64,000 nt of DNA from NCBI RefSeq assembly GCF_026210795.1, contig NC_089432.1, positions 5,208,001-5,272,000 on the forward strand, given 5' to 3'. A program made the position numbers and the translations under genes. The stretch's first letter is position 1. Each line of letters starts with the position of its first letter. The notes under the pieces were generated by a model. The model saw only the letters and a program-made list of their open reading frames with translations. It did no database searches and was not told the DNA's origin. Shown here piece by piece: positions 1,300 to 59,700 of the stretch. This stretch comes from Rhizophagus irregularis. Its lineage: Eukaryota.

Positions 1300-2230
1300 T
1301 TGGCAAGTCATGTTGCACATTTAATTAATCGGAATTTTTTTTTTCAAATATTTATTTTTTTTTTCAATTTCTTTGGTTTTTTCTTTTTTTCAAATTTTGT
1401 CATTTCTCTTTCGAAACACCTTTTCTTTTCCTTTTTTTTTCTTTTTTTAAAAATTTTTCGTTTTTTTTTCTCTTTTTGTTTTTTTTTTATTTTTTCTTGG
1501 TTTTTTTTCCAAAACCGAAAAATTATTATTATTTTTTTTTATTAAATAACTTGTATTATTTTTTTTGATCTTTCATTATTTTTCCCCAATTTTTTTTTCT
1601 TTTTCTTTTCAAGTTTTTTTTTTTTCTTTCCTTTTCCTTTTCGGTTCCCAATTTTTCTTTTTGCCCCTCCTCACAATTTTTTTTTTCAGTTTTTTCGAAT
1701 TCTTTAAACCTTTTTCTTTTTTCAGGTTGGCTTTGGCTTTTTTTCTAATCTGAAAAAATTTTTTCACCTTTCTTTTTTCGGGTTGGCATTTTTTTTTAAA
1801 CCGAATTTTTCACCATTAGGTTTGGATCGGGTGATCAGATCGGTGCTGCAGGCAACAGTAAGCACCTTTTTTTTGTTTCTTTTTTCTTAGCTGTTAGGAT
1901 TTTTTTTTTACTAATACTTTTTACCCTTAATGTTTTTTTTTTATTAACGAAAACTTTATTAGTACTGAACCAATTACATTGTAATCAAACCCATATTCAC
2001 CATATATACATATAGTATGTCAACAAAGTTCTATTAAATTTATACTAAATAAGATCTAGCTAATATGAAACTTGTAATTACTAAAATTATTTTATATAAA
2101 TTTCATTTCCAGTCCTATTCCGAACTTTAAAAAAAAATTTTTTCAACCCATTTTTTTTTATTTGTTTTTTTTAAACAAATTTTTTTTGTTCTTTCAAGTA
2201 ATATAATCAAATAAATGATTTTTTTTATTT
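1300..2230. repeat. T-rich low-complexity tract, probably an internal remnant of a non-autonomous element
   Basis: Long T runs; the Phe-rich ORFs here are compositional artefacts. Confidence 0.5.
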
Positions 2231-9807: not shown

Positions 9808-11217
9808 CTATATATCCTTTACGATATCTGGCCATGTAATTTCATGATTCCAAAAATCATCATCATAATAATTACATTCAATTATACCTTCTATTTTATA
9901 TTTTTTAATAAAATTATGCACTTCAACAAAACGATGATATAAATGCAAAGTTTTTTTACCTTTACAATTCCAATTATTAAAAAATAATTTTAAAGATTCT
10001 TTATTAAAATACCTAAATCGATCAATGTGAATTTTGTATAAAGGGAGTGGTGCCAATTCAATCAACAAATCCAGAAATTTATCACGATATTTTTCCAAAA
10101 TTAACTCATCTATATCTATTGCTACCAAGTATTGACACTTGATGAAAATATTCTTTAATTCTTCCAAAGTTTCATCTCTGTTTAAAAATACTGTTGCATA
10201 TTTTATATTTGGACAATATCTGTAGATTGTCTGATTATATTCTTTTGCTTGATCATAACTAGGAATTCTAATTTTAATTTTCCAAAGATTTCCATTGGTA
10301 TTTTGTATAATATTAATTACAATATAAAGTGATATTTTATATAACTCAAGTATTTGAAGTTTATAATAACTTGCATCCATTGCGTATTCCTCAAATTTTT
10401 TAATTGGTTCATAATTATTAATATTATCCCCATTACGTATTCTTATGAATTGTAAATTTGTTAATTTTGGAAAGAGAAAATATAAAAAAGATGTATACTT
10501 AGTTGATACCAAATAAATAATTGAATTTACATGTTTTTCTAAAGCCTGAGCAATCTTTTGGCATTCACAATATCCTTCTATATATAAGTATTTAATATGT
10601 TTTTGCATTTCAATTAATTCAACAATTCCAGAAAGATCATAATCATCAAGTTCTATATAAAGTTTTTCTATTGATCTACATATTTGTGCCAATTCATGAT
10701 AAAAATTTTGTTCTCTTATATTACAATATAATTCATATAAATTTGAAAGAGAAATATTTGCTCCTGGATATTGAAATATTGGATAATATATCATATTTAA
10801 ACTTAAACATTTTATAGAACATTCACTAATAAAAAGTTTATAAATTTCTTTCTTTAATATTGAATCATTTGGTAAAACCTTATGAATATCATTAAGATTT
10901 TTACAAAATTTAATATAATTAAATGAAAGTTTTTGCTTTTGAAAATTTGATTTGATGATATAATTATTTTTCAAAAGTTTAATTGAATTATCTGATAAAT
11001 GTGAAATGATAATATTAAAAAATAATTCTTTTTTACAAATATATTTATATGGAGAACTCCATAATATTGGTATCATAATTTCACACCAAAGTTTATTAAC
11101 TAATAAACAATAAAATAGAGATTTTCTATATTTTTTGTTATTGTTTAAATTCATATTAGTGAAATCAATTAGATCTTGAAAAATATAAAAAATGATGTCC
11201 CTATTTAATTTTGACAT
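9808..11217 (-). CDS. F-box domain / LRR-like protein (expanded Glomeromycotina family), 469 aa
   Basis: MSKLNRDIIFYIF...SLFYCLLVNKLWCEIMIPILWSSP F-box signature followed by LRR-like repeats; intact single exon. Confidence 0.9.
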   Translation of the reverse strand: MSKLNRDIIFYIFQDLIDFTNMNLNNNKKYRKSLFYCLLVNKLWCEIMIPILWSSPYKYICKKELFFNIIISHLSDNSIKLLKNNYIIKSNFQKQKLSFNYIKFCKNLNDIHKVLPNDSILKKEIYKLFISECSIKCLSLNMIYYPIFQYPGANISLSNLYELYCNIREQNFYHELAQICRSIEKLYIELDDYDLSGIVELIEMQKHIKYLYIEGYCECQKIAQALEKHVNSIIYLVSTKYTSFLYFLFPKLTNLQFIRIRNGDNINNYEPIKKFEEYAMDASYYKLQILELYKISLYIVINIIQNTNGNLWKIKIRIPSYDQAKEYNQTIYRYCPNIKYATVFLNRDETLEELKNIFIKCQYLVAIDIDELILEKYRDKFLDLLIELAPLPLYKIHIDRFRYFNKESLKLFFNNWNCKGKKTLHLYHRFVEVHNFIKKYKIEGIIECNYYDDDFWNHEITWPDIVKDI

Positions 11218-12470: not shown

Positions 12471-13528
12471 ACATTTTATACATTTTGCATAAATTATACT
12501 GTGTAATCAATCCACACCGGTTTTAAAAACTATTTTACATTATCTTTTTCATTAGGGAGAACTTTGATATAATTATATAGTAATGGCTCACAGTGATGAT
12601 AAAGGTAAAAAGCTTGTAACATGAATATTTAATATAAATTAAATTTAATATTCTAAAACTTTTAATCAAATTGTCAAATAGCGTCAAGGTAAATACGTTT
12701 CTCAAATTTCGATTCTAAAATTTGATTTTCGATTAATCATTTCTAATCAATTGTGCATCATTAAATTTGTGGCAGGAAAATTTCCAATGATCACAAATTT
12801 AACAATATAATCATTTGATTATTGAATTTTATGATTTCGCATTTAAAATTGCACGAATAATCAGGGATCGGCAGTAACTCTGGCCAAGCTTATAATTCCG
12901 GCCAGAATTAAAACTTTAGTGTGACACAAATCACAATTCAAAATTTCGCATTAACGCAAAGATCCAATGTCACGTGATTTATAATTTCGTAATTCTGGCC
13001 AGCACTATAGTTTCGATTTTTTTTTTTATTCGACAATCATTTCGATTCGATTTTGGCAGAATCGATTTCTCAACAAATCAATGGTGATTAAAATAGTTTG
13101 GATTTACAGGTCACATTTTTAAGGAGTTGATCACATGGCTGACTGCAGCTATTTTACGTAACAAACAATATTGCATCATTTTTTTTTTTAATGAAAGATT
13201 GAGCTTCGAAATATGAAGTACAACAGAAGGATATTTAATATGATAATTAGATAATTTATAATTTATGTAAAATCAAAAAATTTTTATTTTTAATGAATAA
13301 GTAAAACTATACACAAATATAATAAATATATTCAAAATTACAAATAAAATTTAAATTACAAAGATATTTTTTTTTATGATACATGTTAATATAAAGAAAT
13401 TTAATAAAAATAATAGCGCCAGGCCATTTTGTAATGAATAGTAGCTACGTCATTAGGGTTAAAATTGGTCTTCATAGGTTTTGCCATGTAATAACCAAAA
13501 TCGTAAAGTCGTTGAAAGAATTTTCCAT

Positions 13529-13630
13529 TTACATTATAGAACATGAGTTTGTAGGATTACCATCAGGGTTTTCAGTTATTTCGGAAGCAACAATAACAAT
13601 TGGTTTAAAGGTAATAGTTGTTGGATTCAT
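13529..13630 (-). CDS. Putative farnesylated (CAAX) lipopeptide pheromone precursor, 33 aa: MNPTTITFKPIVIVASEITENPDGNPTNSCSIM
   Basis: Manual translation; CSIM directly before the stop; AAAA before ATG; A/C-rich leader; TATAAATA box ~140 bp upstream; decayed paralog at 14.5 kb. Confidence 0.75.
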   Translation of the reverse strand: MNPTTITFKPIVIVASEITENPDGNPTNSCSIM

Positions 13631-13767
13631 TTTTGATTGAGTTTACTTGAGAAAAAATCTTGAGAATTTGATATTTGTTTGATTTCTTTGATTAATTTGA
13701 TTAATTGATTTTTTTTGTTCTTTGAACTCTTTTCTTTTGATGGGATTTTACAAGGAGAAGCCAAGCG

Positions 13768-13920
13768 TATTTATAATAAATCAAACAAACAAAATTTTAG
13801 GCTTTTAAAATATCTATTATCATCATAGAAAATTGGAATTTTACATACTTTACATTGTTTTCTTATTATTTCCTCCCCCCATGCATTGTATTGTTTTGTT
13901 TTTGATATTCTCCCTTTATG
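13768..13920 (-). promoter_or_regulatory. TATA box and HMG-box-like sites upstream of the CAAX peptide gene
   Basis: TATTTATA on + at 13768-13775; CATTGTT 13853, CATTGTATTGTTTTGTT 13884-13900, TCCCTTTAT 13911. Confidence 0.4.
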
Positions 13921-14487
13921 TTTCAAAATTGTTCAGGTCATATCGGGTATATCCTTTTTAGAAATTATTTAAAGATTGGTATAAATCTATTATCTGTTAT
14001 AGTAATAATATTCATGCGTTACATTAGCCACAAATAAATCGACCGCTGCACAAATTAATATTCTTCGTTAGAAAACATTTTTAGGATTTTTTAAATTTAA
14101 CTTTATTTGTAAATGTTTGTGCATAATTTGAAACTAATATTCTTTCATTGTCACGATACATCTCGCTGTGTGATAACGATAATAATTTATCTATAATATA
14201 TTTAAATTAAATTTTACAAACTGAAATTCTATTATTTTCATATATTATAATAATATGTTCAAATATATTCAATAATTTTTTTTTTTGTTAATTGATATTC
14301 TGACGCTATGTAAAAGTGAAAATCATAATACTTTTGGTTAAGCAGCTTAAGACAATATTTATTTGAGATAACGTACAATAAAATGAAAAAATAAATTTCC
14401 ATCGGATAAGTTATTCCAGCAGCAAGAAAATTTAAAATCTTCATTATAACGCTAAGTCAATGTAAATAAATTTCATAGTATTAGTGT

Positions 14488-14578
14488 TTAATATTATATA
14501 AACATTAATTTGTAGAATTAATGTTATTTCAAAAGCAACAATCGTTACTAGCTTGACAGTGATGATTGTTTGATTAAT
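14488..14578 (-). pseudogene. Decayed paralog of the CAAX peptide gene
   Basis: (ATT)NQTIITVKLVTIVAFEIT-[deletion]-NSTN*C aligns to MNPTTITFKPIVIVASEIT...NPTNSC; the 5' flank is also similar. Confidence 0.7.
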
Positions 14579-28139: not shown

Positions 28140-30167
28140 ATGTCAGAAATGAATGAATGGTTTAAGTGGATTGAAGAAGCTATTGCTAAAAAGCATATTA
28201 AATATTACGAGTATAAATATTTTAAAAATATTCAAGAAATTGGTATCGGTAGTTTTGGTAAAGTTTATCGTGCTAAATGGAAAGATTTGCCTAAATATTT
28301 TGCATTAAAATCTCTTCTTAATATTGATGAAGAAGCTATTAAAGAACTTATTAATGAGGTGATTATAAAATATGTATCATAATATAATTTATAATGTTAT
28401 TTTACTTAAATTTTTTATCGTCAATATGTAGATTGAACTTAAACGTGAACTTATTTCTCATGATAATATTATTAATTTTTATGGGATTACTATTTCAGAT
28501 CAAGGTAATAAATAAAACATTATTTTGTATTATTAGTACAATAAATTGATGAAAGTAATAAATTCTTTATTTATTTAGAGAATCAAAGTGATGACATTAA
28601 GAAATATCATTTAGTGATGGAGTACGCTGACAGTGGTTCTCTTAACAATTATTTAAAAGAAAATTTTGAGAAACTTGTATGGGAAGATAAACTTAAATTT
28701 GCTTACCAGTTAGCTAGTGCCGTATCATGCTTGCATGATGAAGACATAATACATCGTGATTTGGTAATTTATTAAATTTATTGATAAAATAATTATTATA
28801 TTAATTATATTATTTTATTATAACTATTTATATTTTATTTCTTTTATTATAGCATTCTAATAGTGTATTAGTCAATCAAGATACTATTAAATTGGCGGAT
28901 TTTGGATTGTCAAAGAGAATCGAAGCGTCAACTAAAAAGAAAAAAGATTTATTTGGTGTAGTTCCTTATATTGATCCAAAAAAATTCAGTAATAAATCAT
29001 ATTCTTTAAATAAGAAGAGTGATGTATACAGTATAGGCGTACTTTTGTGGGAGATATCAAGTGGCAAACCACCTTTTTATTTAGAAGAAGAGTCATATGA
29101 TGATTGTTTATCTGTGCAAATTATGCAAGGTCATAGAGAAACTACTGTTCCTGATACTCCCATTGAATATGTTAAGCTTTATACTGGTAAGTTTAACATT
29201 TTATTTATTTATTTATGAAAATACTATTATACATTAATTGAAAATTTTGATTTTTTTTTTAGAATGTTGGAATGACAACCCAGATAATCGGCCATCTATT
29301 CAAGAAGTTGTTGAAAGATTAGATTGTATAATTAGTAATCAAAAAAACGAAACTATTGATAAGAAAACTGATCAAATGACAAATAAAGATATAGTTTTAA
29401 ATAGTATTGAAGAATCATCACATAGAGAATTATCTCAAATTATTCAAGAATTCAATAAGGTGAATATAAAAGAAATAATGGGATCTATGACATCAATAAG
29501 TGATGAAATTACTTGTTTACCTGAAAATGATTTAAGTGTAATAATTAATAATATTACAGAATTTATTTTTGAAGTGATGAATAAGAGTAATAATCTTAAT
29601 TTATACCAGAAATTTCTTGTATATTTAATTAATCAAAATATAGATCCACAAGAAATTTATGATTGGTTATCTAATAATCAAAATTATAATTCAAATTCAA
29701 TTTTTTTACTTGGATTTTTTAATTATTATGGAATTGAAACAAGTGAAAATAAAAAGTTGGCTTTTGATTTATTTATTAATGCTTCTGAACTAGATCATAT
29801 ATTGGCACAATACTTTGTTGGTTATTGTTATCTGTTTGCAGTTGGAACTTCACCAAACAATTCATTAGCTTTTAAGTATTTTGAAAAAATAGCTAATAAA
29901 GATTGTGCAATAGGACAGGTGTTTACTGGGTGTTGTTATGGTAATGGATATGGCATAAATGAAGAACAAAAACTTGCTTTTCATTGGAATGAAAAGGCTG
30001 CAAATAATGGAAATATAATTGGTATGAGTAATCTTGGATATTATTATAGCATAGGAAGTGGCGTTGAAAAAGATATAGATAAAGCAATTTATTGGTATAA
30101 AAAATCCGCGGAACAAGGGTATGAAAGTGCTCAAAAAAAAGTAGAAGAATTAATGAAAACTGAGTAA
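28140..30167 (+). CDS. Tyrosine-kinase-like protein kinase with C-terminal Sel1 repeats; exons 28140-28358, 28432-28504, 28579-28763, 28853-29186, 29263-30167
   Basis: GxGSFGKV, ALK, HRDLH, DFGLS, SDVYSIG motifs; GT-AG introns keep frame; Sel1 repeats (NLGYYYSIGSGVEKDIDKAIYWYKKSAEQG). Confidence 0.93.
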
Positions 30168-33100
30168 TTTATGTAAACTTAATTGTATAAACCTGTAATC
30201 AATCTATATAAATATAGTGTATACATGTATATATCTTGAAATGTTAATTTACAACTATATTAAATTAATTTACAGATAAATTTCTATGAATCAGCATTAA
30301 TTAATATTATTAAAATTTCTTGTAATGTGGCATTAAATGTTATTTTATGCATTTAAGATGGGTAAAATCATCATGTTCTAATATTCAGTTTATAGTCTTT
30401 AAAGAACTTACATTTTTTATAGTTAGATTATTATACATTCCTTAATTAGTAAAATATTAGAAAATTTACATTTACTTAATTAAATTAAGGACGAAATTAA
30501 CTATAAATACAATACTTATCTTTTTTTTATTCAATTTACAGTAAATTAAATTCATTAACAGAACATTTGATTTTAAACTATTTATTTGCATAAATAAGTC
30601 AACAAATTTTATATCACGAGTAACTCAGTTCATCATCTGACAATATGATCAAAGACGTATGGTCGCATGGTAAAGAGCACTTGGTAGCAATATATATAAA
30701 TGAAAAAATTAGAATTGTCGATAAATTGCTAGGTTTATTGATTGAATTAGTTCCACTCACTTTATTCACATTGTTTTGTTAAAGATTTTAATGAATCTTT
30801 AAAATTATTTCTTAATAGAAGTTATCGTAGTTTATTAATAATATTGATTCTATAATTTTCATCTAATTTTCAACTTTAATCTTTCAAGTTTGACAAAATG
30901 GATAAATAAATAGTACTAGCAATATTTTTTCTTTACTATCATTTGGCTCTAATAACCGTCCATTTCTCCAAATAAAAAATAAATGATTTTTGCTTTCAAA
31001 CGATGGCACTATCACAATAAATATTTTGCCTCATTACTTTGTTTATTTCTTAAAATTTTATAAAAACTAACAATTAAATTGAAATGATTAATACTTATTA
31101 TTGTAACATAATAAAAATGGAACTTACAAATGTAAATGATGGAAATTCTTTTGATCAACATCAAAATTGAAATCTAGTCCTGTATTCCCTGTTGAGAAGG
31201 ATAACAACAAATAAATCTGATAATAACACGTATTTGGACGTATATTTATTCACAAAGGACAAGGACACAAACATGAAATAAGTAAAATAAAAGTATTACA
31301 GAAAATTCAAGATTGCTGCAAAAATTGTTTGATAATATTAGCTTTTATACAAATAATCGTTGATTATGATCACCTGAGTTTTGTTTGTTTTACACGATTA
31401 CACAAAAACGCATATACATATTATAATGGAAATTCAAATCTAATATTTTGGACGTATAGATAGAATCAACTCTGACTAAAAATATTATTGCAATTTTTTA
31501 TTTACAATGGTGGAAATTAGACCTTAAGTATTCATAATTTTTATCGGGTATAGATATTGTTCAACAACAAATATTATTATTGTAATAACATTGCAAAAAA
31601 TGTAAATGATATCATATCACAAAGATTAACAGTGATAGTGATTTGGATGATTTTCTTATTAGTATAAGATATAATCCATTAAAAATAGCTAAATTTGCTG
31701 AGTCCAAGTGTATTGAAGGAAGTTCTCCATTTAAAACTGATAATGTAAAAATATCGATAAATATTTCATTCCATCCAAAATATGAAATGATCCAATATCA
31801 GGTTTATATCAGTAAGGAATTTTGATGAAATATATATCATATTCTATTTACAAATGTAAAAGAAATAACAGAAGGATGACTTAATATTGTACAGTAAATC
31901 AAGCAACTTTATTAGCTGATTTCAAATATTTAACGAATTATGATGAATATTGCACGAGAAAAACTCTCAATATGTTATTAAATTAATAATAAATATATTT
32001 ACCTCTACAAATAAATATTTTTTATCTTAAAAAAAGATGTAATTTTAATCTTAAAATTTATAGTTAGAATCAAATCTACAGTGTACCGTTTGGATGAAAA
32101 GTGCCAAAATTTCGAAAAATTGATTTTTCGAATTTTTGAATTTTAAAATCTCCTTATAAGGAGATTCTCCTTATAAGGAAAATCTCCTTTTATGGCAATG
32201 TAACGTTACACAAATGTCCAAATAAGGAAGTTTGTATTACCAAATTTCCTTTTTTGGACGTTTTGTGTAACGTAGATCTATCCTATAAAAGGAAAATTTC
32301 CTTATAAGGCGATTTTAAAGTTCAAAATTTCGAAATTTCGAAATTTCAAAAAAAAATTACCATAAAAGGAAATTTTTTTTAAGATTTTTGAAATTTTGAA
32401 ATTTCGAAATTTTGAATTTGAAAATCGCCTTTTAAGGAAATTTTCCTTTTATGTAAGGGATCTACGTCGCACAATATTTAATTTATAGTGCCAGCCAGAA
32501 TTATAATCTCCTTATACAGAAATTTTGTTTAAAAATATTTTTTTAACAAATCTGGTGGCTAAACTATTTACCCGAATTCCGAAATCATGTGTTAATATTT
32601 ATTTTTACCAAAAATTGGAGTAATCCTGGCCGGATTTAAGAAAAATATTAATGTAACGTTACACAAATTTCCAAAAAAGGAAATTTTGCTTCTCGCAAAA
32701 AATTGGAAATTTGGTTTCACAAATACTCCAAAAAAGGAAATTTACATGGCGATCACTTAATTCCGGCCAGCATTATAAATTTTTTATATTCTTTATTAAT
32801 TAAAAAAATTTAATTTTTTTTAATAAACTTTTAATTTTTTTTTAATGATCTATATATACTTTATTAATATTAAGTTCATATACCATATAAACAAATTATC
32901 ATAAGCTATATCCATCCAATAGAATGCAATCATCAAAATAATAAACTTTTAATAAACTTTAACTTTTTAATTTTTTTTAATAATAATAATAATTATTATT
33001 ATTATTATTAGCATTATATTAATTTTTTAATTATGCAAAATAATTATCAATTTTACCAATGGCTGGTATCTTCTAATATTTGTATTTGAATAATACATAT

Positions 33101-33879
33101 TTTTAATGAAGAAAAAGCAATATATGATAAAATTTATATTAATAAAATTTTTAATAATTTTTATTTTTTTTTGTTTTTTTATCAAATTTTCAATTATACA
33201 AAATAAATATTTATATTTAAGTGATGTATTAAATATGTTTTTAATGAAAAGAAAACAATATATAATGAATTTATTTAATATTCTTTTTAATAAATTTTTT
33301 TATAATTTTTATATTTTTATTTTTTAATTTTTCTTAAAAAACTTTTTAACTTTTAACTTTTCTTAATTTTTTTGTTTTCTTTTATCAAATTATTTTCAAT
33401 TATACAAAATAATTATCAATTTTACTAATGGCTAGCATTTTCCAATATCTGTATTTAAGCGATATATTAATGTTTTTAATGAAAAGAAAGCAATATATGA
33501 TAAAACTTATATAATATTCTTTTTAATAAATTTTTAATAATTTTTATGTTTTTTTTTAATAAACTTTTTTTATAAACTTTTTAATTTTTCTTAATAAACA
33601 TTTTAATTTTTTTTAATAAGCTTTTTAATTTTTTTTAATTTTTTTTGTTAATTTTTTTATCAAATTTTCAATTATACAAAATAATTATTACTGATTTTAT
33701 TAATAACTCAATATTTGTATTTAAGTGATATATTAAACATATTTTTAATGAAAAGAAAACAATATATAATAAACTTATTTAATATTCTTTTTAATAAAAT
33801 TTTTTATAATTTTTATAGGAATATGTTTTTTTTTCACCTGCAATATGTCACATCTTCCTTTTTTTTATTTTATTTATTT

Positions 33880-34317
33880 ATTTATTTTATTACTAAAAGA
33901 GTGGCAAAACCCAGGCTATTACAAATAGAAGGAGAAAGAATTCGAAAAAACTTAAGACTAATATATGTGTATAGACCTTTGTTCGTCATCCCCTACGGGA
34001 CCTCACTCTTTGATCTGTACTATTTGATAAAGTAGGACTACGCTAATAAATCAAATGGGAACCATAAAAAAAACTATCCGAGAGACTAGCGGCTATCTAA
34101 AAAAAGAAAGTTAAAGGCAATCAAAATATAAAAATTAAGATCCGTATTTTCCTTTCAACCAAGGTTGCCACCTGTGAATACTGTAAGAGGTGGAATGTTT
34201 CACACTATTTTAAGTTGTGTTATACATATGATAACGAAAAAAGAACCGAAAATGTAGATTAAACTACTAGATAAATGTAAAAACTCCAAATAAAAGAGTA
34301 CTAATATATATATATAA
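33880..34317 (-). ncRNA. Conserved structured 3' block (copy D)
   Basis: Sense-strand pairings TTCGTTATC/GATGACGAA, CCACCT/AGGTGG, ATTTGAT/ATCAAAT, AAAGAGTG/CACTCTTT; motifs shared with copies A, B and C. Confidence 0.55.
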
Positions 34318-35137
34318 TTAATTAAACTGTCTTAGAACTTGAAGGTCCTGGTACCAGGGAGTCATCGGTAGTATCTGGTGAAGGACGTAGTCTTTGCATG
34401 TTATAATTTTGAAATGAGAAATAATGATTCTCGTTATTAATATTATCACGTTTGTTGGGCCGATATTCGACCTCTGCTGTATCATCTGATACATCAATAT
34501 ATTGAACGAGAAATTGAAGAAGGTTTTCGTTGTTGTATTCTTATTGTTGATTTTTTGTTCACGTGATTTGATAAACGTGATTCTATCTAATAATTTTTGG
34601 CGTATCATATTAAAATATTTTTTTTTGAATACAGCGTGGAAAAACTCGTTGGGCAGAAAAAAAATGCTGAAGCTGTTTGCTAATTTGAAATTTGGCGCTT
34701 GGTAGTGCACTTGTGGAATGATACTGAATAGGGGTAGTTGACATGAGATAGTCATTTGTGTGTATCCTTAAGTGAATTTGATTGGTGTCTAAATTATGAT
34801 CAACAATCTCAAAAAAGAAACTTTTTGAACGTCTGAATTCATAGATCTTGTTGTAACCGGCTTTGTGTATTCTGGTCACGTGAAATTTTGTGAAAGAAAT
34901 GAGAAAAGAATTATTTTCGCACGAAGGCAGTGAAAGGCATAAAGGAGTGTGGACATGTATAGTCGAGAATAAAGTATCCTGTAGTTGTATATTTGTATCT
35001 AAAACATTATTTTCAGCAGGTCCGTCTTCAGCAATATTACTTCTGATATCGGAAATAGCGTCCAACTGTCTATAAGATTTCAGAGACTCGTATGATACCG
35101 AGGAAAAATCTATCTCAATAAAGTTTGAAGAAGTCAT
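34318..35137 (-). pseudogene. Frameshifted intronless orphan ORF in the retroposed cassette
   Basis: Overlapping ORFs 34610-35137 and 34318-34755 look like one protein broken near 34750. Confidence 0.55.
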
Positions 35138-35906
35138 ATCCCTAATATATGGGCATTAATAAGAACAAAAACCTTATACTGTGACCGAAGCGCCCTACAG
35201 GGCCTCTTATCCCTTTGGGTGTTTCAAATAGAAACGAAAAAAAACCTTGCGCTAAATTACTGCGGAAAACTAACAAAATTAAAAAAGGGGGAAAGAGTTT
35301 TTTTTTTTCATCTTCCTTTTTTTTGGTAATTTTTATATATTAATTATGTTGATCATTTTGATCACATAACTTTGTTAAGATTTTCCATTTTTTTAAAAAA
35401 TCCTGGTGTGAAACCTTATGCACTTATTATGTACTATAAGAAACCTTATACTATATGTATTTTTGACCGCTCTGCAAGTTTTCTTAATATATCAAAAGAG
35501 ATTTAGATTGTCATTTTGACTTTTATATGTAATATGTTATAGGAATGCGACATAACACAGGTATGATAAAAAATAAAACCCATTTTTATTTTTTTATTTT
35601 TTTATTTTTTAATTTTTCTTAAAAAACTTTTTTTTCTTTTAACTTTTCTTAATAAACTTTTTAATTTTTTTTGTTTTTTTTTGTCAAATTATTTTCAATT
35701 ATACAAAATGATTAAATATTTGTATTTAAACGATATATTAATATTTTTAATAGTGAGAAAGCAATATATGATAAAACTTATATAATATTCTTTTTAAATA
35801 ATTTTTATATTTTTTTTAATAAATTACAATAAACTTTTTTTATAAACTTTTTAATTTTTCTTAATGAACATTTTAATTTTTTTTTTTTTTATCAAATTTT
35901 CAATTA

Positions 35907-36061
35907 CAATCAACCCTTGTTATAACGAACCCTAGATTCCAGACCTCAACTTCACTATATAGTTATAGTAAAGATTTTAAGAAATTTAATTGGTTAATTC
36001 ATTATAACAAGGGGAAATTTATTATAGTTGTCTGAAAATTCACTATATCAAAAGTTGACTG
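35907..36061. mobile_element. pogo/Tigger-type MITE (155 bp)
   Basis: Degenerate TIR CAATCAACCCTTGTTATAACGAA / CAGTCAACTTTTGATATAGTGAA; TA duplication; the empty site CAATTATACAAAA is seen in sibling repeat units. Confidence 0.8.
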
Positions 36062-36715
36062 TATACAAAATAATTATCAATTTTACTAATAGCTAGCATT
36101 TCCAATATCTGTATTTAAGCGATATATTAATGTTTTTAATGAAAAGAAAGCAATATATAATAAAACTTATATAATATTTTTTTTAAATAATTTTTATATT
36201 TTTTTTAATAAATTATAATAAACTTTTTTTATAAACTTTTTAATTTTTCTTAATAAACATTTTAATTTTTTTTTAATAAGCTTTTTAATTTTTTTAATAA
36301 ACATTTTAATTTTTTTTTTTTAACAAATTTTTAATTATACAAAATAATTATTAATTTTACTAATGGCTTAATATTTGTATTTAAGTAATATATTAAAGAG
36401 AAAATTTATTCATCGCACGTGCGATGACATCGCTACCCCCCATTTTATTTATCACGTGATAAATCCAATTAAAATATAGCACGATTATTGTGTTACAATA
36501 AATATAAACAATTTTATAGCTTCGTCAATAGTTTTTTTTTCTAACACTCTTTTTAAATAAAAAAAACAACCTGTTTTTTTGCTTAAAAACGCGTTAAAGT
36601 TGCTTCTTAACATTTAAAAATACTTTTATGTACTAGTAAAGTAGCTCAAAAACTTTAATTGTTCAATTATCATAAAGAAATTGGGTTACACGGCTCAAGC
36701 AGTGATTCGTGAAAC

Positions 36716-39713
36716 ATGGAAAATGATAACACTCCACAGGTTAGTCAATTGCGCACATTTTTTTTTTGTGAAATACTACTGAAATACTATTGAAAGTGCT
36801 TAAAAAAAATTAATTTGGGGTAAACGGCATATGGTATAGAGTTTTAATAGCGTTAATTTCTTAACAATTAACATCAATAGCATTATTTATTAGTTAGATA
36901 GCGTTAAATGTACATTATTTATTAGTTAGGTGACGTTAAATAGCGTTAGATATATATTAATTAACGTCACAAAGCATTATATTATTGCGCATTAATTTAT
37001 TGGTATTAAATAGCATTACTTTAATGTGCTTAACAGCTAACTTATTTATTAATCTATTAAATAGCAAGAAATTGAAACTGAAGTTGAAATTCCCGTAGAA
37101 ATTATTCTTGGTTCAGAATTAGAAAGTCTTGACTCTACAAATTATCCTTCATTAACACATCCTATAGAATTATCTGTTAATTCAAAATTTAGTTCGTGGG
37201 AAATTGCTGAACATTATCTAAAGGAATATGGAAGGCAAAAGGGATTTGTAGTTAATAAATACCGAGTTGAATATATTCAATTATCAAACTCAACTGTTCA
37301 AATTCCCAGAAGAAGAACATTTGCTTGTGAATATGCTGGAAAGTACAAACCTAACTATAAGTCTAAGCAAATTGATCAACAACGTAATAAAGGGTCAAAA
37401 AAAACTGATTGTAAATGGCGGGTTCACTTGAGTAAAACTATAAATAATAATTTCATTCATGTAACGTCTATCCATCTTGAACACAACCACAAAATACTTG
37501 CTGATAATACACAATTTGCTACAACATTCCGAAAATTTAATCAATCTATAATGAATGAAATTGAACATGCAGTTATACATGGACGTTGTGATGCATATAC
37601 TATAAGAAATCTATTACAACCATTATTTCCTGACCAGCTTTTTCTTACACAAGATCTTTCAAATGCAATTCAAAAAATTAAACGTGAAAAAAAAATAGCT
37701 GGAACAGATGCTTCTCATTTGTTAAAATTTCTCCTTGAACGACAAAAAGAAGAACCTATGATGTTTGTTCAACCTTTAATAAATGCGGATAGTGATAGAC
37801 TGTGTGGTATATTTTGGATGACGGAAAATCAAATTATTTTGTGGACGCGTTATTCAGATGTTATTTTACACGATAATACCTCTAGAACTAATAGATATAA
37901 CTGTCCATTATCTCTATTTATACTTGTTGATAATGATGGTAAATCACGTTTAGGAGCACAAGCTTTTTTAAATGATGAAACTCAGGAAAGTTATGAGTGG
38001 ATTTTACAACAAACGCTAAATGCAACAGGAATTGAACCAAAAGTTATAATCACTGATATGGATCCTGCAATGGATGTGGCATGTCAAACTACGTACAAAA
38101 ATGCGTATCACATACATTGCATTTGGCATATGACCTAAAATTTACCTAAACGTCTCAAAAATAAACTTGGTGCTGCAGATTTTAAGATATTTTTTCATGA
38201 TTTTTGGAAAACTCGCAATTCACTATGTGCAGAGGTTTTTGAACAACGATTTCAAGCTTTATTAAATAACTTTCCCAGTGGCAGTGATTATTTACATGAC
38301 CCAATATATTCAACACGCCATTCATGGGCACGAGCATTTACAAACAGAATATTTACAGCTGGTATACAGTCAACACAGCGTGTGGAGTCAATAAATGCCA
38401 TTATTCATAAAGTTGTTAATTCTAGCTCTACAATGGCAGAAGTAGCTGAGGCATTAGATTCTCGAATGCAAAAAGAAGAAATAAACAAGAATTTTATAGC
38501 ATGGAAATACAAATCAACAATATATCATCAGCCATTTGTTGTGGAAAATTTTTTTAGTAACGTTAATAATATAGTTCAAAAATATTTTTCACCAAGAATT
38601 GTTGGGGAAATACATAAACAAATGTGCGAATCAATAATTTACAAATGTGAAAAACTAGATATTAAAGATGCATTTGAGTTTATTGAGGATCAACTGGTGA
38701 GTAAAAAATTAAAATTATAGTAGAATGATATAATAAATGTTTAACTAGTACTATTATGTATATATTTTTAGGATCAAAATGAAATTCCCGAAAATCAAGA
38801 AAGCCAAGGAACGTCAAATGATCAAGAAGAAACCAATAATATTGAAGATTATTACGATTTTCGCCAGACATACTTAAAATCATTGTTAAATTCAGTACCA
38901 AAAGAAATGATTAAAGAAGTATGGCGTATCATTCCATATATGGTGCCAAGTTCATATCAGCATATTATTATTCTTAACGATGGAACCCATTTATGTACAT
39001 GCTTGTTATTGGTTTCATATGGAATTATTTGTCGTCATTATTTTAAATTAATGATTGAAAATCCAAACGCATTATTCCATATAATGCTAATGCCAACAAG
39101 ATGGCTTCTGGATGACGCTTGGAATCACATTGACTCTATTTTTAATGAAGCTTTTATCGGAACATCATCTAAAAATTTAAAGCCAATTCATGATGATAAT
39201 ATTGATCAAAGGATTTATCTTAATCCTAGGCATATTAATCACGTTCAAGAAGTAGAAATTTGTTATTATACACAAAAAAAAGTAGATTATGGTCGAATTA
39301 TGGGACATTTTAAGAAAGCACTAAACTATTCATTTGATAATAACGATCAAAAAAATTTAGATGATATTATACTAGCTTACATTGCGGAAAAAGAAACTAT
39401 TATGACTCAATTAGAAAGGGGAAATGTTCTTAAAGACAATAATACAAATAATCAATTAAAGTTGTCTGATGGTCGTACATATGATGTAGATGATATTGGA
39501 AATCCATTAAAACGTCAAGGAAAAGGGAGACCTGCTACTAAGCGATTAAAAGCTTGTAATGAACAAAAAAATAAGGCGAGTACGACACAAAAATCACAAA
39601 AAGAGAATGTACTATATGAAGAAAATATTGAAAATTCAAATGGGCGTAAATGTGGTTTGTGTCATAAAATGGGTCATTATGCTCCCAAGTGTCCCAATAA
39701 GAAAAACGTATAA
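36716..39713 (+). pseudogene. FAR1/MULE transposase with SWIM and CCHC knuckle; exons 36716-36739, 37065-38696, 38772-39713; one premature TAA at 38136-38138
   Basis: FAR1 DNA-binding domain (SKKTDCKW), MULE DDE core (HDNTSRTN, IITDMD, HCIWH, TQRVES), CTC...CRH SWIM, CGLCHKMGHYAPKC. Confidence 0.9.
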
Positions 39714-39819
39714 TATTTTAACAATTAAATAAAGTAATAATTTTTACTGTGTATAAATAATAATTTTTTAGTACATGTAAGCTAATTTATTAAGAGTTGA
39801 ACAATATACAAATACAATT

Positions 39820-40841
39820 CTGAATTTCTAATATTTAAACTAACCTATAAAGGATATAATCCCACGAAAATCCTTATCATAAAACACTATTCATACCCTT
39901 CGTTGATTTATAAAATAGTGTGTTGAATTTCATTTTGTTTATTTCTGTATAAGCAAGGCTGTACGTCTAATCTTTACATTATGTTAATATCTAAATAAAA
40001 ATTGGGCATTAGTTTGCGAGTTCAGAATTTCATTGCAAATGCACAACCACGACTAAAATATTCATACTTGTTTGTATAAATACCTCTTTCTATACTCCTC
40101 TTTCAAACACTTCGGATGCAATAAAAGGTGGCTTATCTATTATATGTGGTCGCACAGATCTGTTGTGCATTTATTCCAAAATAAATCTCAAAAATATCAA
40201 GTGTTTCCTGATGAAAAGTTTTGCCATTATCATATAAAAGAAAAGCAAAAACTAATTCTTTAAATTGAAGTATAAAAACGTATATACTTTTAATAAAAAA
40301 AAGAATTTGTTTGATTGCTACTTGATTAAACTAATGAATTATATAAGAAAAATGATTAAAATCCAAGTTAATTTAAGTTATTAAAATTGATGAATAAAGA
40401 GAAATTTTACCTTCTTAAGCCACTGAAAAACACATCTAGATTCTTTAAAAGCAAAATCCATTAAAGATATTTGACAGAATTGCGTATCTTAGGAAATTCT
40501 TGCTATTTAATAGATTAATAAATAAGTTAGCTGTTGAGCACAATAAAGTAATACTATTTAACACCAATAAACTAATGCGCAATAATATAATGCTTTGTGA
40601 CGTTAATTAATATACATCTAACGCTATTTAACGTCACCTAACTAATAAATAATGTACATTTAACGCTATCTAACATCACCTAACTAATAAATAATGCTAT
40701 TGACGTTAATTGTTAAGAAATTAACGCTATTAAAACTCCAAATTAATTTTTTTTAAGCACTTTCAATAGTATTTCAGTAGTATTTCACAAAAAAAAAATG
40801 TGCGCAATTGACTAACCTGTGGAGTGTTATCATTTTCCATG
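39820..40841 (-). pseudogene. Eroded second (convergent) MULE gene starting in the right TIR
   Basis: The right TIR has the same ATG exon MENDNTPQ and intron, followed by further exon-like segments with stops. Confidence 0.4.
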
Positions 40842-43800
40842 TTTCACGAATCACTGCTTGAGCCGTGTAACCCAATTTCTTTATGATAATTGAACAATTA
40901 AAGTTTTTGAGCTACTTTACTAGTACATAAAAGTATTTTTAAATGTTAAGAAGCAACTTTAACGCGTTTTTAAGCAAAAAAACAGGTTGTTTTTTTTATT
41001 TAAAAAGAGTGTTAGAAAAAAAAACTATCGACGAAGCTATAAAATTGTTTATATTTATTGTAACACAATAATCGTGCTATATTTTAATTGGATTTATCAC
41101 GTGATAAATAAAATGGGGGGTAGCGATGTCATCGCACGTGCGATGAATAAATTTTCTCTATATTAAATATGTTTTTAATAAAAAGAAAACAATATATACA
41201 ATATATAATGAACTTATTTAATATTCTTTTTAATAAATTTTTTTATAATTATTATATTTTATCTTTTAATTTTTCTTAAAAAACTTTTTAACTTTTTTCT
41301 TAATAAACTTTTTAATTTTTTTTTGTTTTTTTTGTCAAATTATTTTCAATTATACAAAATGATTTTCAATTTTACTAATGGCTAGCATTTTCCAATATCT
41401 GTATTTAAGCGATATATTAATATTTTTAATAAAGAAAAAGCAATATATGATAAAACTTATATAATATTCTTTTTAATAAATTTTTTAATAAATATTCTTT
41501 TTAATTAATATTCTTTTCTTTTTAATAAATTGTTTTAATAAATATTCTTTTTTTTATAAATTAAAATTAATATAAATTTGAAAATCATAAAATAAGCATA
41601 TCTTAATCTGTTTTATAAGTTTACTTAAAGAAAAAAAATAGTTTTTAAATACTATTTTTAACTTTATATTTAAACGAAGATTTTGCTAATTATATCCAAA
41701 AATAGAAAAACAAGAAAATGGCATTTAAAACCTCATTTTGTATTTTAAGTAAACTTATAGAGCAGATTAAAATAGTACATTTAATATATTGTATATGTTT
41801 AAAAGATTGTATTATTTTATATATATGGTGAAAATTTTATTTATAAAAAAATTTTTTTTTGAAATTATATAATTTACTTCTACTTTAGACATTTTTCAAA
41901 AAGGAAAGTGTAATGCATTATATATGTAATGAATAAATTTACTTATAATAAAATAATATAAAAAGGATATTAAAGGCAAATATTGGAGAGACTTATTGGA
42001 AAAAATATAAAAAATTTATTAAAAAAAAAATTTTATTAATTTGCATTTTAGGTAAAATTATCTAAAATAAAATTTAGCAGTTTAAACAATTGTTAAAATT
42101 TAGCCTACAACATTACCACTAGCTAATAATAAATAATAACAGATTAATTATTGAAAATAAAAAATAGAAAGTATAATGTCTGTAATAAATAGCTTTTTTA
42201 GTATTATTACAAAATTTTTCTTATATAATCATAGCAAAAATTTATCACCTTATATAATAAATACTTTAAATACTCTTCACATTTCCATTTTTATAAGTAT
42301 TCTAAAAACAGAATTTTTTCAGTAATTAAAATCTATTTATTATGATCTTATTTATCATATGGTTCATAATGTTAGCCAAAAAATCATGAAAAAAAAATTT
42401 TGTAGTAATACTACTAATAAATTAAATAAAAATTAAAGAATATAAAAGAATATTAAAAAGAATATTAAAAAAATTATCACACTATAATTAAGCTATAATG
42501 CTGGCCGGAATTAAGTGATCGCCATATAAATTTCCTTTTTTGGAGTATTTGTGAAACCAATTTTCCAATTTTTGCGAGAAGTAAAATTTCCTTTTTTGGA
42601 AATTTGTGTAACGTTACATTAATAATTTTCTTAAATCCGCCCAGGATTACTCCAATTTTTGGTAGAAATTAAATATTTCCTTTTTTGAAAAATTGATCAC
42701 AAGTAATTGTAAAATTAATAAAATCAATTATAATTCCGGCCAGAATTACAATCACATGATTTCGGAATTCGGGTAAATAGTTTAGCCACCAGATTTGTTA
42801 AAAAAATATTTTTAAACAAAATTTCCGTATAAGGAGATTATAATTCTGGCTGGCACTATAAATTAAATATTGTGCAACGTAGATCCCTTACATAAAAGGA
42901 AAATTTCCTTAAAAGGCGATTTTCAAATTCAAATTTCGAAATTTCAAAAATCTTAAAAAAAATTCCCTTTTATGGTAATTTTTTTTTGAAATTTCGAAAT
43001 TTTGAAATTTTGAACTTTTAAAATCGCCTTATAAGGAAATTTTCCTTTTATAGGATAGATCTACGTTACACAAAACGTCCAAAAAAGGAAATTTGGTAAC
43101 ACTAACTTCCTTATTTGGACATTTGTGTAACGTTACATTGCCATAAAAGGAGATTTTCCTTATAAGGAGAATCTCCTTATAAGGAGATTTTGAAAATTCA
43201 AAAATCGAAAAATCAATTTTTCGAAATTTTGGCACTTTTCGTTCAAACGGTACACCGTACAAATCATCATTGTTACAAATTAATTTTGATATTATTAAAA
43301 CCCTTAGTTTACAAAAAATCCAAAATTAGATGATTATATATTAGTTATAGAATATGCATCGGAGAATCGGAAGGAGATTTACATAAATATTTTACAAAAG
43401 AAATTTGTAGAAATTAATTGGCAACGAAAATATTTATTCTAACTAAATTATTAATGTATATATAATTATATTAAGCTATTAATCTTCTTATTATTTTAGG
43501 CTTCTGCATCTGTATCATGAAATTTCTAAGTAGATTATCGATCCATGTAATTTCAAATGGATTAGTTCGGAGATATGTGAAATTCAATACATTCCCATAT
43601 CTATGCCGAAAATACCACGTGTTTTGCCACAAACTATCAGAACTATTCAGATTTCCAATATATTAGTAGATTATTCAATTAAAGATTTGAATCTTGTAAA
43701 ATTGGGAACTTATAACAGGTTGTTTTACTAACGTTGAACATTATTATTAAATCATTGATGAAAATTGAGCTAATTTAATGAAAAGTTGTTAGTAATCCTG

Positions 43801-56736: not shown

Positions 56737-59700
56737 ATGGATCATGATAACAATATCGGCGATATTCAGGTCGAAATTTCAAAAAAAAATATTTTGGATG
56801 AATTTACTGGTCAAGAAGATATCGCGCAAGAAATAATCAAAGTAGTATCCGTGTTAATGCAATTGGGACATTTTGATTACAGAAAGTTCGAAAATGAATT
56901 AATAGGAACAGATAAAATGAAAGATTATTTAAAATTCTTAAAGAATGAGCTCAAAAACTGGTAAGTAATTATTTATACTCCCCTTATTTATTTTTCGCAA
57001 GAAAGATTTTTAACGAACTACGTTTCTACCAATTCTAGGCAAACTATAGTTGATCACGCACAAGAACAGTGTTATTATTTAACGTTCTTCCCTGCTCGTC
57101 ATATTTTGGCATTCCATGATTATTTCACATCGGAAAAACCAGATAAAGAAAATGAAGAAGAATGTAAAACATTGGTTAGATTTGTGAACAACAAAGCTAA
57201 ATTACCATCTCGTAAGGATATTCAAGGAATTTCACGTGGATCTAAAGATTATCGCAAGATTCTATGCGAGATTGGAAATGAATTAGAAAAAATTTTTAAA
57301 AGTATTCCAAAACAATCACGCGGCGGACTTAAAGCTGCTGAGGTTTCCGGACAACGCACAACGCTGAATATTGTTAAAAAGGGTAAATTATTTATTGCTG
57401 CTTGTGCTGACAAAACAAGAGTTCCAAACATTATTATGTCATTATATGTCAATAATGGAAATTATCCGGAACCGTGGCAACTCTTAATATGTACTACTTC
57501 AACTACGATGGAGGAATTAACTATCTTCATAAAAAGGAGTTTCTTTGCATCAAAAAATGGATATGAAAATCACTTATTTTGTATTGCAAATTTAGAATTA
57601 TTAGACTTTGAATTACAATATGATTTAGTTAATCAAATTAGATCAATGAGAGATCAAAAAGATTTTCTTCTAGCGCTTATTTGTTACAGAGAAAATGGAA
57701 TTCATCATCACATTTTAGATCAATTTTCTTCAGATGTCGTCGTGACTGATGGATTAAACAATGAAGCTATGAGGGAAGTTTATAGGGAATTGTGTCAGAA
57801 TGTTATTCGTGTTTCTTCCGACTTATCGGGACAAGGCAAAACTGAATGGATTAAAGAGGATAGTTTCAATAAAAAGAGATTCCCACGTAGCTTTTTAATA
57901 AGTGATGATATGGAATTTGGCAGACTTGTACGTCAATTTAAAGAATGTAAACTCCAACCGGTAGAAAGTTTACATATCAATATAGTATCATCTAACTACC
58001 CCGAAGACGTCAATATGTTTTTATTTGAATTATTAACTTTGGGTATAGCCTCTACTAATGTTGATGTAGCTTGCCTACCTCCTTCGGAAACACCTATATA
58101 TATATTTGTCGAAATAGCTTCAACTACTGAACAGTATTTACTTAATTCTCTTCCTATGGCAGGATATTTATTGTCCAAACATTTAACTTGGGATATTAAA
58201 AGTTTGAAAATCTCTCAAGATATTACTAGTCCAATTCAGATTACTTGTAATTATTTGAATTTATTAGATCTTGATGAGATAGATGCAAAAGAAATCCTTT
58301 TTCGGACCGATAATGCAATTAAAGAACCGTTACCCGTGGAACGTTGTCAAAATCTTATCGAGAAATATTTTTTTAACGAAAACAACAAAGACATTTCCTC
58401 ATTTAGATTTGTTGAAATATTTGTTAATGTTCTAGCAGATCAATTGGTTCGATTTTCATCAAGTCAATTCTTTACAGTAGATAATTTGAAATTAATGGTA
58501 AAAGAAACTAATATCAGAAAACTTATATTAAAAACCTTAATGGATGGTTCAAAAGATTTTGCAACTAGATCTATTAAAACAAGAGAGGCACAATTGGAAT
58601 CTACAAATACTGAAGATGAAAACGCTCGTCTTGGTACAATTGTTCAATGGGACGACTCAGATCAACCTATAGTATTCTTCAATTCTCAAACTCCCAATAC
58701 AATATCTGCCTTATATCGTGACAGAACTAAAGTTCACGAAAATGTTAAGACTTTATTAAAAAGTCAAGTTATTGGAAATAGAACAAAATGGGAGTTAGAT
58801 GATTATAATTCGATGTCTACGGATGCACTTCTTGTGAAGTTAGAGTATTTAGCGCAAAGTTCGACAGAAAAATTAAATCTTCCTGAATACGCTTTATCTG
58901 GTGATAATCTAATAAAAATGGCCTTAATTCTTTTAAGAGCACGCGCGAATATTCCAGTTATAATTTGTGGTGAAGCAGGCTGTGGCAAGGTGATTATTAT
59001 ATTTCGTTGTTATTTATTTTCATTATCACTTTTTTTTAAATATTTTACTTGAATTTTATATCTTTTATAGACAAGTTTGATTGCCTACTTGGCTTTGATG
59101 GTTGAAGTTCAATTCCAGTCTCTTAACCTTCATGCTGGAATTGATGAAAAAACTATTATGATGTTTATGGATGATTCTCAAAAGAAAGCAGAAAAAGGCG
59201 AGATTTGGTTATTCTTTGATGGGATCAATACTTGCAATTATATAGGTCTACTTGCTGATTTAATATCTTATCAAATGTTTAATGGAAAATTAATACATCC
59301 AAATATTCGTTTATTCTCCGCTTGCAATCCATACCGCCTTCGTACAAAATCCCAAAGTGAAGCTGGTTTAACAAATAGGGTTAAAAAATTTGAAGAACGA
59401 AGTAATCTTGTTTATCAAGTAAAACCACTTCCTGATCAAATTTTAGATTATGTTTGGGACTATGGTATTTTAAAATCAAAAGATGAACGTAGATATATTC
59501 AAATTATGGTAGAAAAAGAACTGAAAAATTTAGCACTTCCCGTATTTGTGGAACTTTTATTTGCTTCTCAAAATTTTATTCGAAAAGTTGAAGAACCATA
59601 TAGTGTGAGTCTACGTGATGTCAAGCGAGCTATGAAATTGGTGATATTCTTTTATAAATCTCTTCAGAATCGTCCTGCTTATAGAAATGGACATGTATAT

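Follow-up and report, generated by a model that had tools for sequence, protein, structure and literature searches.

The described systems that come closest to the genes treated here are the lipopeptide pheromones of the Dikarya. In Saccharomyces cerevisiae, a-factor is encoded by genes of the MFA1/MFA2 type, and the components of its pathway, named here for comparison, are Ram1/Ram2, Rce1/Ste24, Ste14, Axl1/Ste23, Ste6 and Ste3. Filters for such genes, as set out in the accessible part of a preprint, are a short open reading frame (ORF) ending in a CAAX box, the presence of several copies and a conservation that is strongest at the mature end (bioRxiv 10.1101/2021.09.28.462209). Basidiomycete precursors are marked by an acid-basic residue pair about 10–15 residues before the CAAX box, according to the available sections of two articles (PMC5473757, PMC3068285), and rhodotorucine A is described, in the excerpt at hand, as originating from tandem units with CAAX-like spacers between them. 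According to another preprint, the STE3 family is conserved in fungi generally (bioRxiv 10.1101/546531). For Rhizophagus and Glomus, the available part of Halary 2013 reports one STE3 and a STE6 ortholog but no pheromone gene (PMC3834313, Table S1); earlier work had predicted a pheromone of these fungi without detecting one. Here we describe an ORF of 33 residues ending in the CAAX box CSIM, which is located at positions 13529..13630, on the minus strand, of a stretch of 64,000 nucleotides from Rhizophagus irregularis (NCBI RefSeq assembly GCF_026210795.1, contig NC_089432.1, positions 5,208,001 to 5,272,000 of the forward strand), hereafter termed the window, whose numbering is used throughout. 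The ORF is one copy of a micro-gene family that is real and previously unnamed. With a probability of roughly 60%, this family encodes farnesylated, trimmed and exported lipopeptides of the a-factor class, which would signal between hyphae via STE3, at the level of the species or in self-recognition.

The reading frame and its relatives

Translation of both strands confirms the ORF, which had been proposed at this position, without assignment of a strand, by a model that had inspected the letters of the window without database searches (the sequence-only reading). The peptide and its stop are read only on the minus strand, from 13630 to 13529, and the plus-strand frame of the same interval is closed. 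The precursor is a short ORF (<100 residues) with a best 19-residue Kyte-Doolittle mean of 0.8, and the absence of a signal peptide is judged by this hydropathy scan alone. Its pro-region (13574..13630, minus strand) is rich in Thr, Ile and Val and contains a short hydrophobic patch, with no segment of signal-peptide length according to hydropathy. The predicted mature-peptide region extends from Glu20 to Cys30 (13541..13573, minus strand), its start being placed at Glu20 because a T-E-x-P motif is invariant or nearly so in family alignments. The CAAX box CSIM and the stop, a predicted farnesylation signal, occupy 13529..13543 of the same strand.

Taken alone, the motif is only mildly unusual and not far beyond chance. 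Among the 357 small ORFs of 20–70 residues in the window, a Cys at position –4 is found in 8, compared to a mean of 10.2 in simulated windows, and a stricter CAAX pattern in 2, compared to a simulated mean of 0.35, while the narrowest pattern would be expected 0.07 times per simulated window. The other small ORF with a strict CAAX pattern (58647-58721) lies inside a run of long ORFs in another frame and is probably due to chance. A scan of metagenome contigs with a degenerate pattern returned 19 loci, all of which were rejected as chance matches since none (0/19) resembles the family upstream of the motif; one of them, at 2001-2027 (+) of contig L001 (60% GC), is an open frame ending in CLIM and a stop, whose 59 preceding codons include no Met, and is likewise unlike the family upstream and probably a chance match. 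The exact 33-residue peptide is absent from a collection of 15 billion sequences. What raises the ORF above chance is the transcription of its family, the exclusively silent variation of its C-terminus and the existence of homologues in other Glomeromycotina.

These homologues were identified in a phmmer search over 1.84e9 representative sequences followed by three profile rounds. The initial search gave 8 matches, four of them R. irregularis models annotated as 'hypothetical', of which three continue beyond the CAAX box, and the profile rounds kept 46 of 477, 61 of 2,097 and 59 of 2,106 candidates. With identities of 91% and 88%, the best named matches bear out the arbuscular mycorrhizal origin that had been suspected from the letters of the window. 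Relatives, all of them 'hypothetical' or unnamed, are found in Rhizophagus including R. clarus, Acaulospora, Diversispora, Gigaspora and Dentiscutata; in a taxonomy look-up, which left Dentiscutata aside, they reach the Glomerales, the Diversisporales and weakly the Entrophosporales, the Entrophospora matches having E-values of 0.14 and 9.6. No named match was found outside the Glomeromycotina, a result limited by the word-based search and by gene callers skipping tiny ORFs, and comparison of the family with PDB sequences gave a single match with an E-value of 1.1. The family appears undescribed in a literature search that included peptide strings and accessions, with subscription papers and bioRxiv supplements, which may hold a report, being outside its reach, and two family accessions were not found in the examined supplement files of PMC7490403.

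Family counts are based on 78 proteins, which include the window peptide and cluster members; P0069 (E 9) was excluded as a chance match. A Cys-x-x-x is found at the C-terminus of 45 of these proteins, in 42 as CSIM. Fifty proteins contain one unit, 18 contain two, none contains three and 10 do not match the pattern. The constant frame of a unit can be written as T-E-x-P...N-x-C-S-I-M with a middle part that differs by lineage. Of the 86 units, 68 carry CSIM and 65 have a Lys or Arg directly after the Glu, the position at which the window copy has Asn. The span from Glu to Cys amounts to 9–13 residues in all 86. Two-unit precursors comprise P0004, P0011-P0017, P0049-P0052, P0056 and P0071 from unnamed contigs and P0035, P0055, P0063 and P0070 from Diversisporales; in a Gigaspora two-unit precursor the units differ, so one gene would yield two peptides. 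In P0017, P0047, P0058, P0059, P0064 and P0076 the Cys is lost or the frame appears shifted near the end, and these are likely pseudogenes. The public models P0002, P0003 and P0005 extend past the CAAX box into tails that are unrelated to each other, and P0034, P0055, P0063 and P0070 likewise extend past it; in these seven models, the box often reads CSII and is followed by an unrelated tail. Since the last codon and the stop form a GT-AA donor-like site at which the reads list no joint, such overlong models probably result from false splicing at this site.

Transcription and variation of the family

The family is strongly represented in three polyA RNA-seq runs (X21, X22 and X23) of the same species label from one study, whose libraries look unstranded. 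Reads of X21, X22 and of a run from a different study (X24) were aligned to 13100-14000, those of X23 to 13505-13650 at 80% likeness. Of 11,053,536 reads in each case, 6,891 (623 per million) in X21, 8,478 (767 per million) in X22 and 12,662 (1,146 per million) in X23 belong to the family. In X21 and X22, the coding stretch is covered thousands of times, and the depth is about 10 just past the stop and zero at 13100-13161 and beyond 13875, and 94% of the family reads continue into unlike sequence. The stop codon is crossed with 98% of the read depth kept, and the CAAX box with its stop is thus present in RNA. Because the reads split past the stop into at least three different, loosely defined 3' consensus ends, we conclude that they originate from a multi-copy family. 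In X17, a run that is probably of DNA, 49 contigs match the ORF stretch.

The window copy itself supplies well under 1% of the family reads and is a minor copy. Its own expression is only weakly shown, since the depth of its 3' flank is about 10 and its letter at residue 21 is found in at most 0.7% of X23 reads. On the 3' side, the depth of about 10 holds for 13472-13502 and rises to about 40–260 at 13317-13471, where many letters differ; from this read depth, 13317..13528 (minus strand) is a likely 3' untranslated region, part of which is common to a moderately expressed paralogue.

Variants were collected, unphased, from X23 reads at least 80% alike, with 40 of 42 rows used and 35 of these 40 located in the ORF. 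In codons 24-34, all seven listed variants are silent, including the one in the Cys codon. As silent changes account for 22 of 99 possible ones in this region, the binomial p is 2.7e-5 in a calculation without a model of transition bias. The C-terminal ten residues are under purifying selection. In contrast, codons 1-22 show 16 listed variants with an altered residue, mostly a conservative replacement, next to 12 silent ones; the crude ratio of non-synonymous to synonymous polymorphism (pN/pS) for the pro-region is 0.4. The indels listed comprise entire codons or add up to three nucleotides. About 99% of the family reads encode Lys at residue 21, where the window copy has an Asn, and about 42% lack Asp23.

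These results bear on several suggestions of the sequence-only reading. Transcription, homologues that retain the terminal Cys-x-x-x and selection on the Cys were all recovered, and a STE3-type receptor and a STE6 ortholog, to which it had also pointed, are reported for these fungi in the accessible part of PMC3834313. Its example of a mature peptide starting at Asn21 (NPDGNPTNSC) does not hold for the family, and it had missed that the ORF is part of a multi-copy family, in which the window copy is minor and possibly weakened. This copy has lost the Glu-Lys pair in its sequence and may be a weak or fading member.

Flanking sequence and surroundings

The ATG is directly preceded by AAAA, and TATAAATA, a TATA box located at 13768..13775 (minus strand), begins 145 nucleotides upstream of it, at 13775-13768 (–), both as noted in the initial inspection of the sequence. 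The 95-nucleotide leader had there been called A/C-rich; it is indeed rich in A (55%) but not in C (16%), being poor in G instead (4%), and it contains no upstream ATG. The reads of one close paralogue tend to end at 13715-13724, which is 44–53 nucleotides below the TATA box. The likely 5' leader is 13631..13724 (minus strand), which reads from close paralogues cover at a depth of about 100–200. The upstream region 13730-13858 is matched by many X2 contigs with a summed depth of up to about 500, from which it seems that the promoter is common to several paralogues. A TGAAACA element 295 nucleotides upstream of the ORF was not used since it is not enriched (16 occurrences in the window compared to 19.7 expected); together with the adjoining ATAAAGGGA it is found at 13925-13911 (–).

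A decayed tandem paralogue is located about 950 base pairs upstream on the same strand (14493..14578, minus strand). It has 64 of 85 aligned bases in common with the ORF, at a local alignment score of 62.5, where none of 40 simulated windows scored above 49, and has lost its start codon, suffered a frame-shifting deletion and acquired an in-frame stop just before the Cys codon. Its sequence fits a birth-and-death evolution of the family.

The window is AT-rich and contains kinase, Sel1 and MULE genes. MULE transposase ORFs (37551-39713) are placed between 488-nucleotide inverted repeats in an element at 36334-41222, which is nested in further inverted repeats (32055-43281). At 57436-62616 (+), long ORFs resemble exons of a very large AAA-type protein with a weak MoxR match (E 0.014), which we presume to be RNF213-like. 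A 469-residue ORF at 9808-11217 (–) has no Pfam match and is presumably F-box-like. The latter and a kinase and Sel1-repeat gene at 28140-30167 (+) are typical of expanded families of the host lineage.

Proposed function of the encoded peptides

At the level of sequence, the family exhibits all features of the a-factor class except for the processing site. Like the yeast genes, its members encode short precursors without signal peptide and with a terminal CAAX box, occur in several copies and are most strongly conserved at the C-terminus; unlike those, they show no detected similarity to a-factor, comprise many more copies with distinct 3' ends, belong to the Glomeromycotina, outside the Dikarya, and give no evidence of an expression limited to a mating type. 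The E-K/R pair located about ten residues before the CAAX box in 65 of 86 units is reminiscent of basidiomycete B-locus (P/R) precursors, such as those of Coprinopsis and of the Phb type in Rhizopogon, whose genes are equally missed by gene callers. The window copy deviates from these in having Glu-Asn instead of the acid-basic pair, and, unlike at P/R loci, no STE3 cluster is seen beside the ORF in the window, with a single STE3 reported for the host lineage. With their internal CAAX-like spacers, the two-unit relatives (18/78) resemble the tandem RHA precursors of Rhodosporidium and the h-type HPP1 precursors of Hypocreales, from which they differ by containing two units rather than three or more, by an unrelated sequence and by the lack of a Kex2 dibasic site after the internal CSIM; the window copy is single-unit. 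KEX2-processed repeat proteins, predicted for R. irregularis in the accessible part of PMC6339444, are alpha-factor-like candidate peptide signals of the same fungus. Unlike the family, which has neither signal peptide nor KR sites, these carry both and have no CAAX box.

By analogy to a-factor biology, a farnesyltransferase would add a farnesyl group to the Cys of CSIM, proteases of the Rce1/Ste24 type would remove SIM and Ste14 would then methylate the product. Cleavage on the N-terminal side, at the T-E-K-P motif or close to it, would release a peptide of about 9–13 residues, which the Ste6 ortholog would export. In precursors with two units, the chain would additionally have to be cleaved behind the internal CSIM. 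STE3 with a G-protein and mitogen-activated protein kinase cascade might respond by chemotropism, by fusion or by the sensing of density, and this response may precede mating.

Several observations weigh against this proposal. There is no sequence link to known pheromones, since Pfam contains nothing for the 33-residue peptide and the best match among 19 family members has an E-value of 0.036, and CAAX boxes are, in the part of the article available, not confined to pheromones (PMC10569646). The Asn cleavage rule of ascomycetes fits the family poorly, as an invariant Asn is placed two residues before the Cys. An Axl1-type Asn site 5–20 residues before the Cys is formally provided by Asn25 in the window copy, which is not kept in most relatives, and Asn21 is private to this copy. 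About 10 of the 78 relatives lack a complete unit, several of them the Cys. The three deep runs all come from one study, with unrecorded conditions and apparently unstranded libraries, whereas X24 contains 205 family reads in 11,514,100 at an unspecified fungal share, and the window copy accounts for the described low depth of its own 3' flank and minor share of reads. The variant analysis requires at least 80% likeness, with transition bias outside its model and 2 of the 42 variant rows outside the count. Finally, the receptor claim goes back to one paper from 2013, and translation, farnesylation, export and receptor activation are predictions.

Among alternatives, the family could encode a strict sex pheromone, in which each mating type (MAT) would express its own members or alleles and thereby induce a compatible partner to mate. 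The anatomy of the precursors is the same as in Dikarya mating pheromones, at least two classes of mature regions, with and without Asp23, are found under one species label with a further class in proteins labelled R. irregularis (P0006, P0032), and a putative mating response on co-inoculation is described in the accessible part of PMC7490403. We nevertheless regard this explanation as unlikely. A single RNA run (X23) contains both mature classes in abundance, a scan of 11 of the window's 21 long ORFs gave no receptor or homeodomain match, the available part of PMC3834313 reports a single STE3 copy and the co-inoculation study, in its accessible sections, lists no upregulated pheromone genes, although the family ORFs are mostly missing from its annotation (PMC7490403). 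Given a single reported receptor, the co-expression of both mature classes in one run and the very high transcript levels, a species-level or autocrine recognition is likelier than a signal specific to a mating type. Autocrine pheromone signalling reportedly takes place in Fusarium.

About equally unlikely is that the genes encode a prenylated micro-protein with another job, either as membrane-anchored intracellular peptide or as lipopeptide whose target is the plant host or bacteria of the hyphosphere instead of a fungal STE3. Such a role would be compatible with the very high transcript level in runs of a probably non-mating condition, with the missing similarity to known pheromones and with the pN/pS of the pro-region, which is constrained too. 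However, the internal CSIM repeats are meaningful only when the units become separated by cleavage, a constant processing-like motif with a middle specific to fungal lineages fits a ligand of the fungus's own receptor, and an orphan STE3/STE6 pair is reported in the accessible part of PMC3834313. A chance origin of the ORF is largely refuted and very improbable, as is its belonging to a repeat, to a non-coding RNA or, as first exon, to longer 'hypothetical' proteins. It is true that small CAAX ORFs arise by chance, that some public models extend past the CAAX box and that a donor-like site is present; however, the C-terminus varies only silently, the protein is conserved across two or three orders, nearly all of the depth crosses the stop without a joint listed at that site and the longer models have tails that bear no relation to each other.

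A recognition signal between hyphae is thus the reading that we prefer, and in its wider form, for which we see a chance slightly above even, the family would supply the ligand that has been lacking for the STE3 receptor of arbuscular mycorrhizal fungi. Its members would constitute the first lipopeptide pheromones of the a-factor class outside the Dikarya. Glomerales, Diversisporales and Entrophosporales would have retained them, each species with mature peptides of its own, to steer hyphal recognition, fusion or cryptic sex. Because an abundant class of transcripts is missing or mis-modelled in the public annotation, published expression studies could not properly score the family. Partner recognition and sex in arbuscular mycorrhizal fungi are a long-standing open question, for which a receptor and an exporter were reported in 2013 without a ligand, and the family offers concrete, synthesisable candidate ligands with species-specific sequences that can be tested without transforming the fungus. 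If the proposal is true, the lipopeptide-STE3 system would be older than the split of the Dikarya from the Glomeromycotina, and a synthetic lipopeptide of 10–11 residues would for the first time allow mating or fusion to be addressed directly in these fungi.
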